NCBI GenBank assembly: GCA_020053305.1
Contig: JAGVNJ010000074.1
Location: 7,348-71,347 of the forward strand
Source of the DNA: Candidatus Edwardsbacteria bacterium
GTDB taxonomy: Bacteria > Edwardsbacteria > AC1 > EtOH8
DNA: 64,000 nucleotides
Direction: 5' to 3'
Part shown: piece by piece, positions 12,057-62,786 of the stretch
Position numbering within the stretch: the stretch's first letter is position 1
How the letters are laid out: every line of letters begins with the position of its first letter
Made by a program: the position numbers and the translations under genes
Notes under the pieces: model-generated
The model's database searches: none
What the model saw: the letters and a program-made list of their open reading frames with translations, nothing else
Told to the model about the DNA's origin: nothing

Positions 12057-13331
12057 ATGGCCGAGCAGATAAAACTTTTGGAACAGCAGATCGCCGAGGC
12101 GATCGCCGAGCCCTTGTACGGCATCATTCAGAACGAACCCAAGAAATCAAATAAAGGAGAAGAGAGTATGCTGGAATTCGAAGAGGATGTTATCAGCGAA
12201 CGCTGCAACATCAAGGTGGTGGGAGTGGGCGGCGGAGGCGGCAACGCCGTCAACCGGATGGTGGAGGCCGGCCTGAACGGGGTGGACTTCATCGCCGTCA
12301 ATACCGACCTGCAGGTGCTGAGGAAATCCCTGGCCGGCCAGAAACTGCAGATCGGGCACAAGCTGACCAGGGGCCTGGGATCGGGCGGCAATCCCGAGAT
12401 CGGGCGCCGGGCCTTCGAGGAGGACAAGGCCCGGGTGGCCGAGATGATCTCGGGCAGCGACATGCTGTTCATCACCGCCGGGATGGGCGGGGGCACCGGA
12501 ACCGGGGCCGCCCCGATGGTGGCCGATCTGGCCCGGGAGATGAACATCCTGACTGTGGCGGTGGTCACCAAGCCCTTCGAATGGGAGGGCCGCAAGAGGA
12601 TCCTGCAGTCCGAGGAGGGCATCCGGGACCTGAAGGAACGGGTGGACACCCTGATCGTCATCCCCAACCAGCGGGTGCTGTCAGTGGTGGGCAAACAGAC
12701 CAAGCTGACCGAATCTTTCCGAATCATAGACGACGTGCTGCTCAAGGCCACCCGCGGCATCTCCGACCTGATCACCGTTCCCGGACTGGTCAACGTGGAC
12801 TTCGCCGACGTCCGCGCGGTGATGCTGGAGCGGGGCGACGCCCTGATGGGGGTGGGAATCGGCACCGGCGAGAACCGCTCCATCACTGCGGCCGAGGAGG
12901 CCATCGCCAACACCCTGCTGGAGGGGGTTTCCATCAAGGGGGCCAAGGCCATTTTGCTGAACATCTCGGCCTCGGATGAGATGACTCTGACCGAGGTCAA
13001 CGAGGTGGCCTCGGTTATCCGCAGCGCGGCCGGCGAGGAGGCCAACCTGATCTTCGGAACGGTGATAGATCCCGAGGCCGGGGACAATATGAGCGTGACG
13101 GTGATAGCCACCGGCCTGGGCAACGGCGCACCCAAGATGGAGAAGGATCTTCCCGACAACAACCGGATAGATTTCCCCCAGTCCTTCCGCAAGGAGAACC
13201 TGGCTCCGGGGACCTTCCAGCGCAAGGAACAGCGCTCCAACATCCAGACCATTGTCACCAAAGGCCAGGTCAGCGCGGTAAAGCAGGACGATTTGGAGAT
13301 ACCCACCTACATGCGCCGCCTGATGGACTGA
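12057..13331 (+). CDS. ftsZ: cell division GTPase FtsZ
   Basis: Tubulin signature GGGTGTG, the NTDLQ motif and a C-terminal FtsA-binding peptide (DLEIPTYMRR). A Shine-Dalgarno lies at 12044-12049. An alternative ATG at 12168 is also preceded by GGAG. Confidence 0.95.
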   Translation: MAEQIKLLEQQIAEAIAEPLYGIIQNEPKKSNKGEESMLEFEEDVISERCNIKVVGVGGGGGNAVNRMVEAGLNGVDFIAVNTDLQVLRKSLAGQKLQIGHKLTRGLGSGGNPEIGRRAFEEDKARVAEMISGSDMLFITAGMGGGTGTGAAPMVADLAREMNILTVAVVTKPFEWEGRKRILQSEEGIRDLKERVDTLIVIPNQRVLSVVGKQTKLTESFRIIDDVLLKATRGISDLITVPGLVNVDFADVRAVMLERGDALMGVGIGTGENRSITAAEEAIANTLLEGVSIKGAKAILLNISASDEMTLTEVNEVASVIRSAAGEEANLIFGTVIDPEAGDNMSVTVIATGLGNGAPKMEKDLPDNNRIDFPQSFRKENLAPGTFQRKEQRSNIQTIVTKGQVSAVKQDDLEIPTYMRRLMD

Positions 13332-13424
13332 TCCCGGTTCACGGATAACGGATAATAGGGTAAAGATGTAATAATCCAGGGCTGTCTGCTATCTCTTCGG
13401 CAGACGGCCGGAAGTGGTTTGATC

Positions 13425-13515
13425 TCTTCTTTATTTGACCTCACCCCTCCGCCATTAGCAGGTGGTCCATATAGGCGGGCAAGCTGCCCCTCTTCTATTA
13501 AAACAGGAGAGGGGT
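13425..13515. repeat. gene-less copy of DUF559-module end (TTGACCTCACCCCT + CCCCTCT..AGAGGGG hairpin)
   Basis: The 14-mer TTGACCTCACCCCT is identical at 13425 and 53745. The hairpin CCCCTCT(14 nt)AGAGGGG at 13477-13504 matches those flanking the DUF559 genes. Confidence 0.5.
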
Positions 13516-13636
13516 TTTGTATGCCCGGTGGTTTGACCACCCCCGTCCCTCCCCGCAACGGAGAGGGCTTTTGTATTCCCTTCCCGAGGCGGGAAGAGGC
13601 AGGGGTTGGGTCCGTATCACCACGACCGCCAAACGA

Positions 13637-13664
13637 GTCATTCCTGTGCAAACAGGAATCCAGG
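13637..13664. repeat. dispersed hairpin GTCATTCC-N12-GGAATCCAGG (copy 1)
   Basis: GTCATTCCTGTGCAAACAGGAATCCAGG; a second copy is at 28649-28676. Confidence 0.5.
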
Positions 13665-13722
13665 CCTATATCATTGCCAATTTATAGGGGTGATTAGTGA
13701 GTCGCCCGTACCACCAATTACC

Positions 13723-13752
13723 GTAGGGACACGGCATGCCGTTCGTCCCTAC
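13723..13752. repeat. REP-like palindrome GTAGGGACACGGCATGCCGTTCGTCCCTAC
   Basis: 8-bp terminal arms GTAGGGAC/GTCCCTAC with an internal palindromic core ACGGCATGCCGT. Confidence 0.6.
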
Positions 13753-13921
13753 ATGCATGCCCGGCAGGTTTGACCGCCCCCCTCCCCATGGGGAAGTATT
13801 TTTATTTCCCCCTTGATCTCCCCAAAAATATTTAAAAAATCTTCATATGGGTCATTGACAAATTTTAATAAATTGTATTAGTATAATTACCTGGCAATGT
13901 CTATATCATACATCTGAATTT

Positions 13922-13949
13922 GCAGGGGCAGGATGCATACTGCCCCTGC
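13922..13949. repeat. REP-like palindrome GCAGGGGCAGGATGCATACTGCCCCTGC
   Basis: Near-perfect 28-nt palindrome centred on ATGCAT; a 37-nt near-identical copy lies inside the RAYT gene. Confidence 0.7.
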
Positions 13950-14026
13950 GGGTACAAAACATAGAAATCAAATTGTCATGTCCGTAAACAATTCCAAACA
14001 TAAACGTCGTTCTATCCGCCTGCCAA

Positions 14027-14076
14027 CCTCACCCATCTCCCTCTCCTAATGCTTTAGGAGAGGGAGATGGGTGAGG
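14027..14076. repeat. 50-nt perfect hairpin (23-bp stem) of the CCTCACCC..CCCTCTCC family, inserted at RAYT 5' end
   Basis: CCTCACCCATCTCCCTCTCCTAA-tgct-TTAGGAGAGGGAGATGGGTGAGG. A TAA inside the right arm terminates the in-frame upstream RAYT reading frame. Confidence 0.75.
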
Positions 14077-14148
14077 TAAGGGGCGTATTACATAACAATC
14101 TGCGCCCAAGACCGCAAATGTATATTTGGTGCAATCGCCGATGGGCGG

Positions 14149-14583
14149 ATGGTATTAAACCCATTCGGCGAAATTGCCCGAAACGAATGGGTTAAAACCG
14201 GCGAATTACGGCCCTATGTCATTCCGGATGTATTTGTGATTATGCCGAATCATATTCATGGAATATTGATAATAACCGATGATGACCATTGTAGGGGCAC
14301 GATGCATCGTGCCCCTACGGGTACGACCGAACGTTTTGGCAAACCTGTCGCCGGATCATTGCCGACCATCATCCGTTGTTACACCGCGGCGGTGACCCGC
14401 CAGATAAATAAATTGCGCAATACCCCGGGCCATAAAATATGGCAACGTAATTATTACGAACACATCATCCGCAACGATAAATCATACGATAAAATCAGAC
14501 AATACATCATGGAAAACCCGCTGTATTGGCCGCAGGATGAGGAAAATCCCAACCGAGCAATTCCTAAAAACGCCATATCATAA
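14149..14583 (+). CDS. REP-associated tyrosine transposase (RAYT / IS200-like HUH Y1), probably 5'-truncated
   Basis: HUH motif (IMPNHIHGILII) and a C-terminal catalytic Tyr region (NYYEHIIRNDKSYDKIRQYIMENPLYW). The first beta-strand (..AYYITICAQDRKCIFG) is encoded in-frame upstream of the ATG but is cut off by a stop inside an inserted 50-bp hairpin. Confidence 0.7.
   Translation: MVLNPFGEIARNEWVKTGELRPYVIPDVFVIMPNHIHGILIITDDDHCRGTMHRAPTGTTERFGKPVAGSLPTIIRCYTAAVTRQINKLRNTPGHKIWQRNYYEHIIRNDKSYDKIRQYIMENPLYWPQDEENPNRAIPKNAIS
14291..14318. repeat. perfect 28-nt REP-like palindrome GTAGGGGCACGATGCATCGTGCCCCTAC inside RAYT coding sequence
   Basis: Perfect palindrome. It is translated as ..HCRGTMHRAPTGT.. 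between the HUH and Tyr motifs. Confidence 0.75.
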
Positions 14584-14589
14584 CAGGTC

Positions 14590-15870
14590 GTGAAAACCTT
14601 AATATTCATAATATTTACGGTCCTTTCTCTTCCCACCTTAGCCGTTGCCTCCTTTGAAGAGATCCAGACCGATGCCCGGCTCTACGGCCTGGCCGGGGCC
14701 GGGGTAGCGCTATCCGATATGACCGGCAGCGACCTGTATAATCCGGCCCTTCCGGCTCTGGCAGGCGACCTCTCGGCCTCCAGCGGCAGTTCGATTCCCT
14801 TCGGCTTGATGGACCTGACGGCTTTCTCCGGCGCCTATGCCCATCGTAAAGATAAAATAGGTGTGGGCGCAATGCTGGCTACTATGGGCGGCCGTCTTTA
14901 CCGGGAAAATATTTTAAAAGGGGCCTTCTCCTGCCTCCTGATAGATGAAGCGGCGGTGGGAGTTTCCCTTAACTGCTATCAGCTGAACATCGAAAGGTAC
15001 GGCTCGGCGGCCGGAATGGGGCTGGACCTGGGATTGCTGGGCAAACCGGCAGAATGGCTGGCGCTGGGAATGAAGGCCGCAAACGTGAACCGGCCGACCA
15101 TCGGCCAAAATGGTGAGGAGATCTCGCAAAGCCTTTCGCTGGGCGGGGCGGTGGAGCCCTTGGATGAAATTACATTATCCTGGGAACTGTATTGCCAGCG
15201 GGATTGGCCCTGCCAGGTCCGCATCGGGCAGGAATACCGCTATCGTAATCTGTTAGTCCTTCGGGCCGGATTCTGCGATCGGCCCAATGCGTCCAGCCTG
15301 GGCTTCGGGGTGATCCATAGGAATTTAAGGCTGGATTATGCCGTCAGGACCCACCCCGATCTGGGGCTATCGCACTGCCTGAGCCTGAACTATATCACCC
15401 AGAGGATATTTGCCAGACCGGAGGAGGTCAGGATAGAGGAGGCCCCAACCGTAAAAATCCTCGAAAAGATAGACCCCAACAGCGCTTCGTTCGATGACCT
15501 CAGTCTTTTGCCGGGCATCGGGCCCCAATCGGCCGCGGATATCATCTCTTTTCGCGACAGCATCGGGCCGTTCAAATATCTAGATGACCTGGCCGAAGTC
15601 AAGGGAATCGGCCGGGCGATGCTGGAGAGAATGGCTCCGTATGTGACGCTGGAATACAAACCCTACATCCCGCTCATTATCAACATCAACCAGGCATCGG
15701 CCCGGGAATTGGCCGCCCTGCCGGGCATCGGGCCCAAAGCTGCCGGGGACATTGCCGCCTACCGCCAGGAGAACGGACCATTCCGGAACCTGGAGGATAT
15801 AATGAACGTCAAAGGCATCGGGCGGAGGACCTACGAAGCGATAAAGAATCTTATCACCATCGGGCCATGA
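14590..15870 (+). CDS. secreted/outer-membrane beta-barrel-like protein with two C-terminal ComEA-type helix-hairpin-helix DNA-binding motifs
   Basis: Signal peptide and a Gly/aromatic-rich N-terminal domain. Two HhH motifs (LLPGIGPQSAADIISFR...VKGIGRAMLERM and LPGIGPKAAGDIAAYR...VKGIGRRTYEAI) are typical of ComEA. Confidence 0.6.
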   Translation: MKTLIFIIFTVLSLPTLAVASFEEIQTDARLYGLAGAGVALSDMTGSDLYNPALPALAGDLSASSGSSIPFGLMDLTAFSGAYAHRKDKIGVGAMLATMGGRLYRENILKGAFSCLLIDEAAVGVSLNCYQLNIERYGSAAGMGLDLGLLGKPAEWLALGMKAANVNRPTIGQNGEEISQSLSLGGAVEPLDEITLSWELYCQRDWPCQVRIGQEYRYRNLLVLRAGFCDRPNASSLGFGVIHRNLRLDYAVRTHPDLGLSHCLSLNYITQRIFARPEEVRIEEAPTVKILEKIDPNSASFDDLSLLPGIGPQSAADIISFRDSIGPFKYLDDLAEVKGIGRAMLERMAPYVTLEYKPYIPLIININQASARELAALPGIGPKAAGDIAAYRQENGPFRNLEDIMNVKGIGRRTYEAIKNLITIGP

Positions 15871-50147: not shown

Positions 50148-50530
50148 GTCATTGTGTAACGAAGCAATCTTCTTGTTGACTTTCAAACCATGGGACGCGA
50201 GTATTATTTCTATATAATGTCAAACAAATGGAACTCGGCATTATATTCAGGCGTGACCAACAATCTCAAGCGCCGCATAGTGGAGCATAAGCAAAAGCGT
50301 CCCGGAAGTTTTACTTCGCGTTATAATATTACAAAACTTGTTTATTTTGAGATATTCAATAATCCCAGGGATGCCATCAAAAGAGAGAAGCAGATCAAGG
50401 CTGGCCCGCGAAAGCAGAAGCAAGAGTTGATCGAAAGCATCAATCCGAAATACAGTGATCTATCAGAGAACCTATAAATAGCCCGGCGGGGATTGCTTCG
50501 TCGCATTCTTTTGAAGCTCCTCGCAATGAC
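50148..50530. mobile_element. TIR-bounded GIY-YIG mini-element, copy 1
   Basis: Left end GTCATTGTGTAACGAAGCAATC (50148-50169); right end GGATTGCTTCG..(20 nt)..TCGCAATGAC (50490-50530). The extended match CTTTTAGTCATTG/CAATGACTAAAAG makes the termini inverted repeats. Confidence 0.65.
50190..50477 (+). CDS. GIY-YIG nuclease domain protein (COG2827/UPF0213-like)
   Basis: YYFYIM...LYSGVTNNLKRRIVEH...KLVYFE.F......REKQIK: GIY-YIG motifs with the catalytic Arg and Glu. Confidence 0.8.
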   Translation: MGREYYFYIMSNKWNSALYSGVTNNLKRRIVEHKQKRPGSFTSRYNITKLVYFEIFNNPRDAIKREKQIKAGPRKQKQELIESINPKYSDLSENL

Positions 50531-51569: not shown

Positions 51570-51969
51570 GTCATTGCGAGTATACTTCCCTGATAAACAA
51601 ATGAAGCAATCCATTTATCATGTTTGGCAAAAAATATTTTGTATATATTCTGGCCAGCAAGAAAAACGGGACTTTGTATGTCGGGGTTACAAACGATCTT
51701 AAGCGCAGGGTGGCCGAACACAGAAACGGAGTGATCCCTGGCTTTGCGAAAAGATATAAAACCTTTTTACTGGTTCATTTTGAAGCGTTTGATGAACCGA
51801 GATTTGCTATTGCTATGGAAAAGCAGTTGAAGGCCGGGTCACGGGCAAATAAAATAAGACTTGTAGAACGGGATAATCCCGATTGGCTCGATCTGTTTGA
51901 AAAGATATAATACAAAGTTGTTATTTGTGGATTGCTTCGTTAGCTATATAAAATCATTCTCGCAATGAC
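51570..51969. mobile_element. TIR-bounded GIY-YIG mini-element, copy 2
   Basis: Left end GTCATTGCGAG..(21)..GAAGCAATC (51570-51611); right end GGATTGCTTCG..(20)..TCGCAATGAC (51929-51969). Confidence 0.65.
51620..51910 (+). CDS. GIY-YIG nuclease domain protein (paralog)
   Basis: KYFVYILASKKNGTLYVGVTNDLKRRVAEH...REKQLK; divergent from copy 1 but collinear with it. Confidence 0.8.
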   Translation: MFGKKYFVYILASKKNGTLYVGVTNDLKRRVAEHRNGVIPGFAKRYKTFLLVHFEAFDEPRFAIAMEKQLKAGSRANKIRLVERDNPDWLDLFEKI

Positions 51970-53744: not shown

Positions 53745-54266
53745 TTGACCTCACCCCTGCCCCTCTCCAAAGGCATTTGGAGAGGGAGGTTGTAATGAGT
53801 AAAAGCATTTATGGCAAGTACAAAGAATTTTGGTGTCAGCACCGGCCGCCGGATCAAGAACGAAAAACTAGAAATGGCCAAACAAATGCGGCGGGAGATG
53901 ACCTATGCCGAGCGGTGTTTTTGGAACGGGGTCAGGGGCCGCAAACTGCATGGCTTGAAGTTCCGCCGCCAGCAGATCATAGACGGGTTTATAGCTGATT
54001 TCTATTGTAATGAGTTAAGGCTGATTGTTGAGATAGACGGCGGTGTTCATGAGACCCAGAAGGATTACGATAAACTGCGCGACAGGATAATCAGCCGGAA
54101 TGAAATTAAAGTGATCCGGTTTTCCAACGAGTTAGTCGTAGACCAGTTTGATACTGTGGCCAGACGTATTGGTGAACTACGTCCTCCCTCGCCAGGTTTA
54201 CCTGGAGAGAGCCTGCACCGAGATGGCCACAATAAATGACAAACGAAAGTGGGCAGGGGTGAGGTC
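53745..54266. mobile_element. DUF559 endonuclease module bounded by 16-bp inverted repeats and hairpins
   Basis: TTGACCTCACCCCTGCCC (53745-53762) and its reverse complement GGGCAGGGGTGAGGTC (54251-54266). Internal hairpins CCCCTCTCCAAAggcaTTTGGAGAGGG and CCTCCCTCgCCAGGtttaCCTGGAGAGAG sit at the two ends of the gene. Confidence 0.55.
53874..54239 (+). CDS. DUF559 (Vsr/PD-(D/E)xK-like) endonuclease domain protein
   Basis: ..AKQMRREMTYAERCFWNGVRGRKLHGLKFRRQQIIDGFIADFYCNELRLIVEIDGGVHE.. is canonical DUF559. The start is set at the internal ATG 53874; the ORF-track start is 53811. The C-terminal tail PPSPGLPGESLHRDGHNK is encoded by hairpin DNA. Confidence 0.75.
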   Translation: MAKQMRREMTYAERCFWNGVRGRKLHGLKFRRQQIIDGFIADFYCNELRLIVEIDGGVHETQKDYDKLRDRIISRNEIKVIRFSNELVVDQFDTVARRIGELRPPSPGLPGESLHRDGHNK

Positions 54267-62326: not shown

Positions 62327-62786
62327 CCCCTCTGGGCAAGAGGGGATTTAGGGGTGTGTTCATGAAAATCTACTACAATGCCAAACTAAAAGAGAAAGCC
62401 CGCCAGCTGCGGAATAACAGCACTAAAGCAGAGATCCGGCTTTGGCAGCATCTCAGAGGCAAAAAGGTAATGGGCTATGATTTTCACCGGCAAAAGCCGA
62501 TAGGCAATTATATTGCCGATTTTTTCTGTCCCAAATTGAATTTAGCAATAGAGGTTGACGGATACACCCATAGTTTTGAAGAGGTCGTTAAGAAGGATCA
62601 TAAAAAACAGGGCTATCTTGAGGATCTGGGTCTAACAGTTATGCGTTTTAAGGATGAAGAGGTTTTTTATGATATCGATTCGGTGTTGAATGGGATCAAG
62701 CAGTACATAATTGGACACACCCCTCGTTCCCCTCTTTGTAGAGGGGAGGAACACACCCCTAACCCCTCTTATTAGAGGGGAATAGA
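62327..62786. mobile_element. DUF559 endonuclease module with 11-bp inverted repeats and CCCCTCT/AGAGGGG hairpins
   Basis: Left end: CCCCTCTgggcaAGAGGGG followed by AGGGGTGTGTT (62350-62360). Right end: AACACACCCCT (62750-62760), flanked by CCCCTCTttgtAGAGGGG and CCCCTCTtattAGAGGGG. The stop codon lies inside the last hairpin. Confidence 0.55.
62356..62775 (+). CDS. DUF559 (Vsr/PD-(D/E)xK-like) endonuclease domain protein (paralog)
   Basis: ..AKLKEKARQLRNNSTKAEIRLWQHLRGKKVMGYDFHRQKPIGNYIADFFCPKLNLAIEVDGYTH..; the ATG at 62362 is the probable start. The C-terminal tail GHTPRSPLCRGEEHTPNPSY is encoded by hairpins. Confidence 0.75.
   Translation: MFMKIYYNAKLKEKARQLRNNSTKAEIRLWQHLRGKKVMGYDFHRQKPIGNYIADFFCPKLNLAIEVDGYTHSFEEVVKKDHKKQGYLEDLGLTVMRFKDEEVFYDIDSVLNGIKQYIIGHTPRSPLCRGEEHTPNPSY

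Follow-up and report, generated by a model that had tools for sequence, protein, structure and literature searches.

What kind of gene carries a perfect palindrome inside its own coding sequence, and what has happened to its 5' end? This is the question raised by positions 14027-14583 of the window, by which we mean the whole 64-kb stretch (64,000 nucleotides, nt) of Candidatus Edwardsbacteria DNA analyzed here. A gene of the HUH/Y1 type and several small palindromes lie between ftsZ (12057-13331) and a gene for an HhH-domain protein of 426 amino acids (aa; 14590-15870), which begins 7 nt past the stop codon of the HUH/Y1 gene. An earlier note, made from the letters alone, had read the gene as a RAYT (transposase associated with repetitive extragenic palindromes, REPs) that holds a REP in its coding sequence and was hit by a hairpin. 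Our analysis indicates that the locus is very probably a REPtron in decay, whose enzyme falls into subclass 2.4 of TnpA-Y1 (Quentin et al. 2018, PMC6006769) or, in the scheme of Bertels et al. 2017 (PMC5581495), into RAYT group 4.

The RAYT assignment holds. NCBIfam gives a REP_Tyr_transpos match (E = 4e-17), and a profile of 40 homologs finds one sole match in the PDB, E. coli TnpA-REP (4ER8, E = 3.5e-6), which extends across the HUH and Tyr motifs and aligns YIMENP with DYIYINP (Tyr115) of 4ER8. The same structure ranks best (E = 2e-7) in a Foldseek search with the AlphaFold model of the ortholog P0001 (predicted local confidence, pLDDT, 84; predicted template modelling score, pTM, 0.80), followed by TnpA of ISDra2, IS200 and IS608, so that the fold is that of HUH/Y1 enzymes. 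For subclass 2.4, Table 1 of PMC6006769 lists the HuH motif NH[IFV]H, a WQ motif and the Y motif YIxNNP (class 2 signature Y---NP). The motifs NHIH, WQ and YIxxNP, the length of 186-187 aa and the type of REP are consistent with this subclass (PMC6006769 Table 1); YIMENP fits Y---NP, with E in place of the subclass-consensus N. The gene is a HUH/Y1 REP-associated transposase of TnpA-Y1 subclass 2.4 / RAYT group 4. Its parts are the following:

13978-14025, plus strand: surviving RAYT codons 1-16 (MSVNNSKHKRRSIRLP) from the ATG at 13978, in the frame shared with the remainder of the gene (alignments)
14025-14077, no strand assigned: 53-nt replacement, an A plus a perfect 52-nt hairpin (alignments, inverted-repeat scan)
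14080-14583, plus strand: remaining RAYT coding sequence, 167 codons and stop, otherwise intact
14080-14106, plus strand: strand beta1, GAYYITICA
14149-14583, plus strand: open reading frame (ORF) of 144 aa called by gene callers (P0259), with the IMG name 'REP element-mobilizing transposase RayT'
14245-14262, plus strand: HUH motif PNHIHG
14440-14463, plus strand: WQ motif WQRNYYEH
14503-14520, plus strand: catalytic-Tyr motif YIMENP

Perfect stems of at least 11 bp occur at only six loci in the 64-kb window, and the two strongest, the palindromes at 14291-14318 and 14026-14077, both belong to this gene. The first is the palindrome which the earlier note had placed between the HUH and Tyr motifs; it is there as a perfect 28-mer, with its start at 14291 and not 14293. 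Three REPs are found at the locus:

14291-14318, no strand assigned: internal double-foot REP GTAGGGGCACGATGCATCGTGCCCCTAC, a perfect 28-nt palindrome, GTAG...CTAC
13922-13949, no strand assigned: 5' REP GCAGGGGCAGGATGCATACTGCCCCTGC, which precedes the internal REP by 369 nt and the ATG at 13978 by 29 nt
13723-13752, no strand assigned: degenerate double-foot REP GTAGGGACACGGCATGCCGTTCGTCCCTAC with a 2-nt bulge (-10.1 kcal/mol, z = -3.5)

REPs of subclass 2.4 are of the 'long' or 'double foot' type, with 5' GT[AG]G, 3' C[TC]AC and G-C pairs at the base of the stem (PMC6006769). The internal REP has this architecture, GTAG-GGGCACGATG/CATCGTGCCC-CTAC, and the same design is present in 32 homologous loci. 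Its 14-nt arms show 100% complementarity (0/100 shuffles match), and as single-stranded DNA (ssDNA) it folds with -15.5 kcal/mol (z = -6.6). Positions 14290-14319 are translated in frame as CRGTMHRAPT, between the HUH and Tyr motifs. The near-identical copy which had been announced at 13919-13955 is present as well, but runs from 13920 to 13955 and has diverged: 31/36 positions are identical to the internal copy, 13/14 pairs of the palindrome are kept and two stem positions are altered on both arms. It folds with -13.2 kcal/mol (z = -5.1), and a copy is seen at the same position in the orthologs L001 and L206-L215. The looser relative noted earlier at 13723 was recovered too, and no counterpart exists at the aligned position in the syntenic loci L206, L207 and L211. 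The expected pairing of a RAYT with a GTAG-footed palindrome and an extragenic copy is thus borne out. No REP follows the RAYT gene in the window, where the gene is flanked by the 5' copy and the degenerate copy only.

The literature already describes an in-frame REP between HuH and Y as the hallmark of subclass 2.4 and interprets it as a neutral insertion, situated in a peripheral loop (PMC6006769), so that the central observation is known as a family trait. Because the window contains no RAYT paralog (tblastn), the proposed check for the same palindrome in other RAYTs was made family-wide. We recovered 80 genomic loci (Chloroflexota, Nitrospirota, Cyanobacteria, Bacteroidota, Zixibacteria and others), 72 of which could be analyzed for hairpins. 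A hairpin of at least ten pairs lies between the HUH and WQ motifs in 48/72 loci, against 0/360 codon-shuffled controls, and starts at a median of 46 nt past the P of PNHxH. The intragenic REP is not peculiar to the window copy. Throughout the family the feet and the G-C base are conserved and the inner stem varies widely. Across 22 distinct 28-mers, 97.7% of the cells are paired and compensatory double changes occur in 7/12 pairs; the covariation score is 0.557 compared to 0.141 for shuffled data (0/500 reach the observed value) and at most 0.133 with slid partners. The hairpin is read in two frames (RG..APT in 18 loci, VGA..PL in 14 loci), the third of which would give TAG. Among the 120 top-ranking homologs, about 85 contain RGT-xx-RAPT, in which xx stands for MH, LQ, AR, VH or AC and each of these is a reverse-complement codon pair. 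In the P0001 model the REP-encoded residues 97-105 form the sole internal low-confidence loop (pLDDT < 50), placed between strand 81-88 and helix 117-136, in agreement with the published view of a peripheral region. Tandem duplications of the REP-encoded peptide or the surrounding segment are seen in P0005, P0011-P0013, P0016, P0026 and P0056, and further in P0078, P0086, P0092, P0097 and P0110; in one case STLQRAPTGNDDNV is present three times, and in P0016 the duplicated part comprises 40 residues. Such duplications point to slippage or recombination at the internal hairpin.

Near-identical copies of a locus's own internal REP are present in the flanks of 24/46 loci, often with 100% identity. 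They lie mostly at -330 to -390 (before the start) and +270 to +345 (after the stop), with the window copy at -369, and the similarity between flank and internal REP stops exactly at the GTAG/CTAC feet. The 28-mer of the window is also found identically in L004 (1984-2011) and L005 (10287-10314 and 10566-10593), the RAYT proteins of which are 57-65% identical to that of the window. One of these two loci comes from a Deltaproteobacteria metagenome-assembled genome (MAG) and has an extra identical 28-mer 279 nt downstream, just 3' of the RAYT gene.

From these data a model of the intact system can be drawn. By homology to E. coli TnpA-REP, an intact HUH/Y1 enzyme of about 187 aa would bind the GTAG-footed REP hairpins in ssDNA, then cut and rejoin them. 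Three REPs make up the layout, one immediately before the start, one immediately after the stop, and one inside the gene about 15 codons past the HUH histidines. The internal one is a feature of the nucleotide level and not a protein motif; its translation forms a disordered surface loop, which is probably why it is tolerated. The sameness of internal and flanking REPs within a genome would arise through RAYT-mediated replacement or gene conversion. In the window, the 5' and internal REPs are present and the 3' REP is absent, and the gene is inactivated by a hairpin of the CCTCACCC/CCCTCTCC family, as described below.

A different view of the internal REP is that it is a putative working cis-element, either a master copy which renews the other REPs or a site where the enzyme limits its own expression. 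We consider this possible, though rather doubtful. It is favored by the same placement in 48/72 loci from many phyla, by the frequent 100% identity to the flanking REPs despite inner stems that differ between genomes, and by the identical 28-mer in loci with proteins of only 57-65% identity. In addition, within the Ca. Edwardsbacteria clade the internal REP is still perfect, also where the gene is frameshifted, whereas 5-6 mismatches have accumulated in the extragenic copy on the 5' side. However, one third of the homologous loci lack a strong hairpin, which shows that it is not obligatory; the intragenic conservation may reflect coding constraint together with recent homogenization; and the published view is that of a neutral insertion in a peripheral loop (PMC6006769).

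With the decaying REPtron as the preferred explanation, we turn to the lesion. The frame 5' of the ATG at 14149 reads GAYYITICAQDRKCIFGAIADGR from 14080, which confirms the earlier claim of an in-frame beta-strand upstream of this ATG, and is closed by a TAA at 14077-14079. The note had ascribed this TAA to a hairpin; it consists of the final T of the hairpin and a native AA. The hairpin measures 52 and not 50 nt (14026-14077) and contains a second in-frame TAA at 14047-14049. Its 24-nt arms ACCTCACCCATCTCCCTCTCCTAA are 100% complementary around a 4-nt loop, TGCT, and it folds with -30.4 kcal/mol (z = -10.1). Searching Rfam with the 52-nt hairpin yielded only sub-threshold matches to eukaryotic microRNA precursors (at most 39.8 bits against thresholds of 60-140), which we dismissed as generic similarity between long hairpins. 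DNA alignments with L001/L002 and L205-L207/L211 show that the 53 nt took the place of 20 nt between CTGCC and AAGGGGCG, or seven codons (EYDYLRE/GYNYSRE); the native segment is GGGATACAATTATTCCCGGG in L205 and GGAATACGATTATTTGCGGG in L001. The intact reference homolog P0001 (loci L001/L002) is 91% identical. The swap adds a net 33 nt and keeps the frame, and the seven lost residues are situated just before beta1.

The earlier note had expected a truncation by 10-15 N-terminal residues. A lost N-terminus was rejected, as MSVNNSKHKRRSIRLP is encoded in the same frame right up to the hairpin. Because these 16 codons (13978-14025) survive upstream, the lesion is a replacement of 20 by 53 nt and not such a truncation. 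Of the two outcomes foreseen, an inactive gene or an N-terminally truncated product, the first is retained: the gene is inactivated and most likely dead.

In clustering at 90% identity, the FtsZ of the window groups with proteins of Candidatus Edwardsbacteria; an exact search with this FtsZ and with P0121, the identical representative of its cluster, matched no contig. The gene order ftsA-ftsZ-RAYT-HhH gene-624-aa gene is common to other Ca. Edwardsbacteria assemblies, which means that the RAYT is chromosomally fixed and vertically inherited. One MAG (L205) retains an in-frame ortholog of 186 aa, in which YYEH has become YYEQ, in a column where the alignment of 40 sequences has nothing but His; its REP has the foot GCAG. 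A 1-nt deletion (TTCCCGGG to TTCCGGG) that results in 140-aa ORFs is shared by ten contigs, which come from ten samples (L206-L215). This deletion falls within the same 20 nt that were lost in the window (for example L206 2864-3000 compared to L205 4001-4140); in L205 the segment forms a small hairpin of its own, CCGGGA-N9-TCCCGG. One spot is struck by two independent lesions, the replacement in the window and the deletion in L206-L215. Pairwise comparisons of the window with its relatives give a ratio of non-synonymous to synonymous substitution rates (dN/dS) of about 0.13 (dS about 0.3), indicating long-standing constraint on the gene and a recent origin of the lesions. Changes within the L205/L206/L211 clade are few and mostly non-synonymous; the window branch counts 12 synonymous and 9 non-synonymous changes, against 15 and 2 for the L001 branch. 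A long-maintained REPtron is now being lost in this lineage, through lesions that differ between genomes. In a JGI metagenome, a homolog of 84% identity (L003 243-797, P0004) has a 1-nt deletion after RQI that frameshifts the C-terminal third; it is another pseudogene or a sequencing error, and an in-frame version (P0256) exists.

Could the gene still be functional, through a 144-aa product from 14149, recoding across the hairpin, or a reversible phase-variable switch? The preserved frame (+33 nt), the otherwise intact downstream ORF with all catalytic motifs and the pairwise dN/dS of about 0.13 speak for this, as do two independent lesions in one short segment that forms a hairpin in L205. 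Nevertheless, two TAA codons stand in frame, and no in-frame ATG, GTG or TTG precedes 14149. In the confident P0001 model beta1 comprises residues 24-32 (GAYYITICA) and the first downstream Met is residue 47; a product from 14149 would lack residues 1-46, including beta1 and part of the next beta-hairpin, and as judged from this model is very unlikely to fold or act. The deletion from C3 to C2, fixed across ten samples, does not affect a typical slippery tract, and constraint is relaxed on the recent branches. We regard a working gene as highly unlikely.

Where does the hairpin come from? Its layout is CCTCACCC-N4-CCCTCTCC-loop-GGAGAGGG-N4-GGGTGAGG, and the claim that it derives from a repeat family that also forms the ends of a DUF559 unit is supported. 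The positions concerned are:

53748-54266, plus strand: DUF559 cassette, a full-length relative of the inserted hairpin, with an ORF at 53811-54239 (Pfam E = 1.9e-32)
13436-13615, no strand assigned: degenerate ORF-less relative, GACCTCACCCCTCC ... CCCCTCTTCT-N-AGGAGAGGGG ... GGCAGGGGTTGGGTCC, in the ftsZ-RAYT spacer
Window 53748-54266, L216 4140-4160 and L217 4140-4200: comparison sites at the argS/methyltransferase junction

The cassette is bounded by a perfect 16-nt terminal inverted repeat (TIR), GACCTCACCCCTGCCC / GGGCAGGGGTGAGGTC, with an inner hairpin CCCTCTCC-N10-GGAGAGGG at its left end. Both the outer arms (CCTCACCC/GGGTGAGG) and the inner arms (CCCTCTCC/GGAGAGGG) are common to the RAYT hairpin and the cassette, as terminal repeats are between miniature inverted-repeat transposable elements (MITEs) and their full-length relatives. 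At the argS/methyltransferase junction, related Ca. Edwardsbacteria genomes show three states. The window has the full cassette, a 94%-identical relative shows the empty site, with ATGTGA directly joined to GGTCGA, and in relatives of 90% identity exactly this point is occupied by a hairpin without an ORF. The empty target has the sequence TGAGGTC, which is also that of the end of the right inverted repeat of the element.

A pattern scan of metagenomes yielded at least 120 ORF-less hairpin stretches (L085-L204) with the layout CCTCACCC-N4-CCCTCTCC-N6-14-GGAGAGGG-N4-GGGTGAGG. Among the matches listed, the N4 spacers are complementary in 106/121 (compensatory changes), and the commonest pair, CTAC/GTAG, accounts for 48/121; the usual flanks are CC...GG. 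No target-site duplication was seen in 104/112 copies among the matches listed, nor at the RAYT or argS site. A DUF559 gene adjoins 2/120 of the listed ORF-less hairpins, on short contigs, so the link between hairpin and DUF559 is real but not obligatory; in L186 and L191 a complete hairpin immediately precedes a DUF559 ORF, and in L037 complete hairpins surround one. Some of the metagenome hairpins cap longer palindromes of 12-17 nt.

Like MITEs and REP-like repeats, the 52-nt hairpin is short, self-complementary and non-coding, resembles the ends of an ORF-bearing unit and has many copies. Unlike MITEs, it has no target-site duplication, and the associated ORF is DUF559 (Vsr-like fold) and not a known transposase; unlike a clean MITE insertion, it replaced sequence in the RAYT. 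Within the single paper library that was searched, nothing relevant was found on DUF559 as a mobile or TIR-bounded element. We tentatively suggest that the hairpin may belong to undescribed site-specific hairpin-forming mobile elements, whose longer form carries a gene for a DUF559 nuclease with Vsr-like fold.

Several other observations concern this family and its surroundings. The ftsZ-RAYT spacer (window 13436-13900) is expanded compared to syntenic relatives by fragments of the hairpin family and the REP at 13723-13752; small palindromic repeats have accumulated locally in this spacer. A second DUF559 homolog (window 62377-62748), which shares 36% identity with the first, has another palindromic frame of about 60 nt on each side, CCCCTCTGGGCAAGAGGGG-ATT-TAGGGGTGTGTTC on the left and GAACACACCCCTAA-CCCCTCTTATTAGAGGGG on the right. 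Small GIY-YIG ORFs of about 95 aa occur in the window at 50190-50474 and 51629-51907, with one in each of L217-L219 (L217 1148-1435) and none at the corresponding ispD/LytR_C junction of L216 (1492-1512). The L217 copy is flanked by the inverted repeats CTTTTAGTCATTGCGAG... / ...CTCGCAATGACTAAAAG. These ORFs are a second kind of small nuclease gene with a palindromic frame and presence/absence variation. The scan for promoters and terminators over 13300-14700 gave three promoter-like sites, where 3.0 are expected.

That the hairpin in the RAYT is an artefact of assembly or sequencing appears very improbable to us. Chimeric reads can yield perfect palindromes, a single contig is the source of the disrupted allele, and L140, a contig with a family hairpin, is itself perfectly palindromic over more than 4 kb, with that hairpin in the centre (almost certainly an assembly artefact seeded by it). 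Yet both flanks continue the same gene in frame, the repeat family has at least 120 members in metagenomes and others elsewhere in the window (13436-13615, 53748-54266), and an artefactual insertion leaves the loss of the native 20 nt unexplained. Finally, we give next to no credence to the view that the palindrome arose secondarily, through selection for the protein motif RGTxxRAPT and its self-complementary codons: this motif hardly varies among the 120 closest homologs, but the DNA-level tests exclude such an origin, since 14/32 loci read the second frame VGA..PL, the variable middle residues are always reverse-complement codon pairs and the inner stem covaries, while identical hairpin copies exist outside the gene and the peptide lies in a low-confidence loop.

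Against the decaying REPtron of subclass 2.4 several points must be weighed. In the 64 kb of this genome to which the search was confined, the three REP copies all lie at the RAYT locus, with no dispersed population, and no copy was found outside this locus in about 140 kb of Ca. Edwardsbacteria DNA. The count asked for in the earlier note gave two diverged copies at the locus besides the internal 28-mer and none elsewhere in the window. Low REP copy numbers are typical of RAYT group 4 (PMC5581495), however, and hence no argument against the assignment. The E. coli-type equivalog model NF047646 of NCBIfam scores 59-62 bits (62.3 for the reconstructed protein) against a cut-off of 80, with 58-72 bits for the relatives; since the score is below the cut-off, the protein is a homolog and not an equivalog. 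Pfam PF01797 (Y1_Tnp) reaches 15.9-16.2 bits against a gathering threshold of 23 and does not match P0001 or P0257, whereas the relatives P0012 (29.8) and P0003 (25.8) pass. As neither the protein nor its closest orthologs have a significant Pfam match, the classification is based on NCBIfam, the PDB profile search, the fold search and the published motifs. The activity assumed for subclass 2.4 is extrapolated from E. coli TnpA-REP, an enzyme of subclass 2.2 with 19% identity. At the RAYT site the hairpin replaced sequence instead of simply inserting, with no target-site duplication, and the replacement allele comes from a single assembly, the 76-kb contig of P0259. The excess of non-synonymous changes on the window branch is not significant (Fisher p = 0.07).

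Comparison with known systems places the locus closest to TnpA-Y1 subclass 2.4 / RAYT group 4, with which it shares NH[IFV]H, WQ and Y...NP, a length of about 190 aa, double-foot REPs, an in-frame internal REP, REPs beside the gene (here on the 5' side only), a low REP copy number and a distribution scattered over many phyla. It differs from the published members in that the window copy is a pseudogene without a 3' REP and has YIMENP instead of YIxNNP, and Ca. Edwardsbacteria is absent from the host phyla named in PMC6006769 and PMC5581495. E. coli TnpA-REP (subclass 2.2 / RAYT group 2; 4ER8, with a REP hairpin bound) has in common the HUH/Y1 fold, a GTAG-footed REP hairpin as the presumed substrate and a single-copy, chromosomally fixed gene; the identity is only 19%, over the Foldseek structural alignment to 4ER8, and in E. 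coli the REPs are single-footed and bulged, occur in hundreds of copies and are not inside the gene. The TnpA proteins of IS200/IS605 (IS608, ISDra2) resemble the RAYT in the HUH/Y1 fold, the recognition of subterminal DNA hairpins and a hairpin just before the start codon. The window RAYT, by contrast, has Y...NP and not Y...Q, is single-copy and syntenic rather than a multi-copy insertion sequence, and has no tnpB. Rickettsia palindromic elements (RPEs) and intragenic GTAG/CGTC REPs (Di Nocera et al. 2013, PMC3733652) are likewise translated palindromic repeats in permissive regions, but here the host gene encodes the presumed recognizing enzyme of the repeat, and the position is conserved in the family and not sporadic.

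Summarizing, the finding itself adds little, in that a REP within a RAYT gene is a published signature of subclass 2.4 and a pseudogenized copy is ordinary. The family data extend the published description of the subclass modestly, with an internal REP that is fixed in position, covarying, read in two frames and often identical to the flanks. They provide a natural data set on which parts of the hairpin the enzymes read, the conserved foot and G-C base against the free inner stem, and the flank-identical internal REPs raise the question whether the RAYT enzyme edits its own gene. The more novel lead lies beside the RAYT finding rather than in it and concerns the widespread hairpin family linked to DUF559, for which close relatives show both empty and filled sites; the idea of a maintained master copy may be the weaker novelty of the two. 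If the suggestion of a hairpin-forming mobile element is true, the window would capture one family of ssDNA-hairpin elements disabling the enzyme of another.

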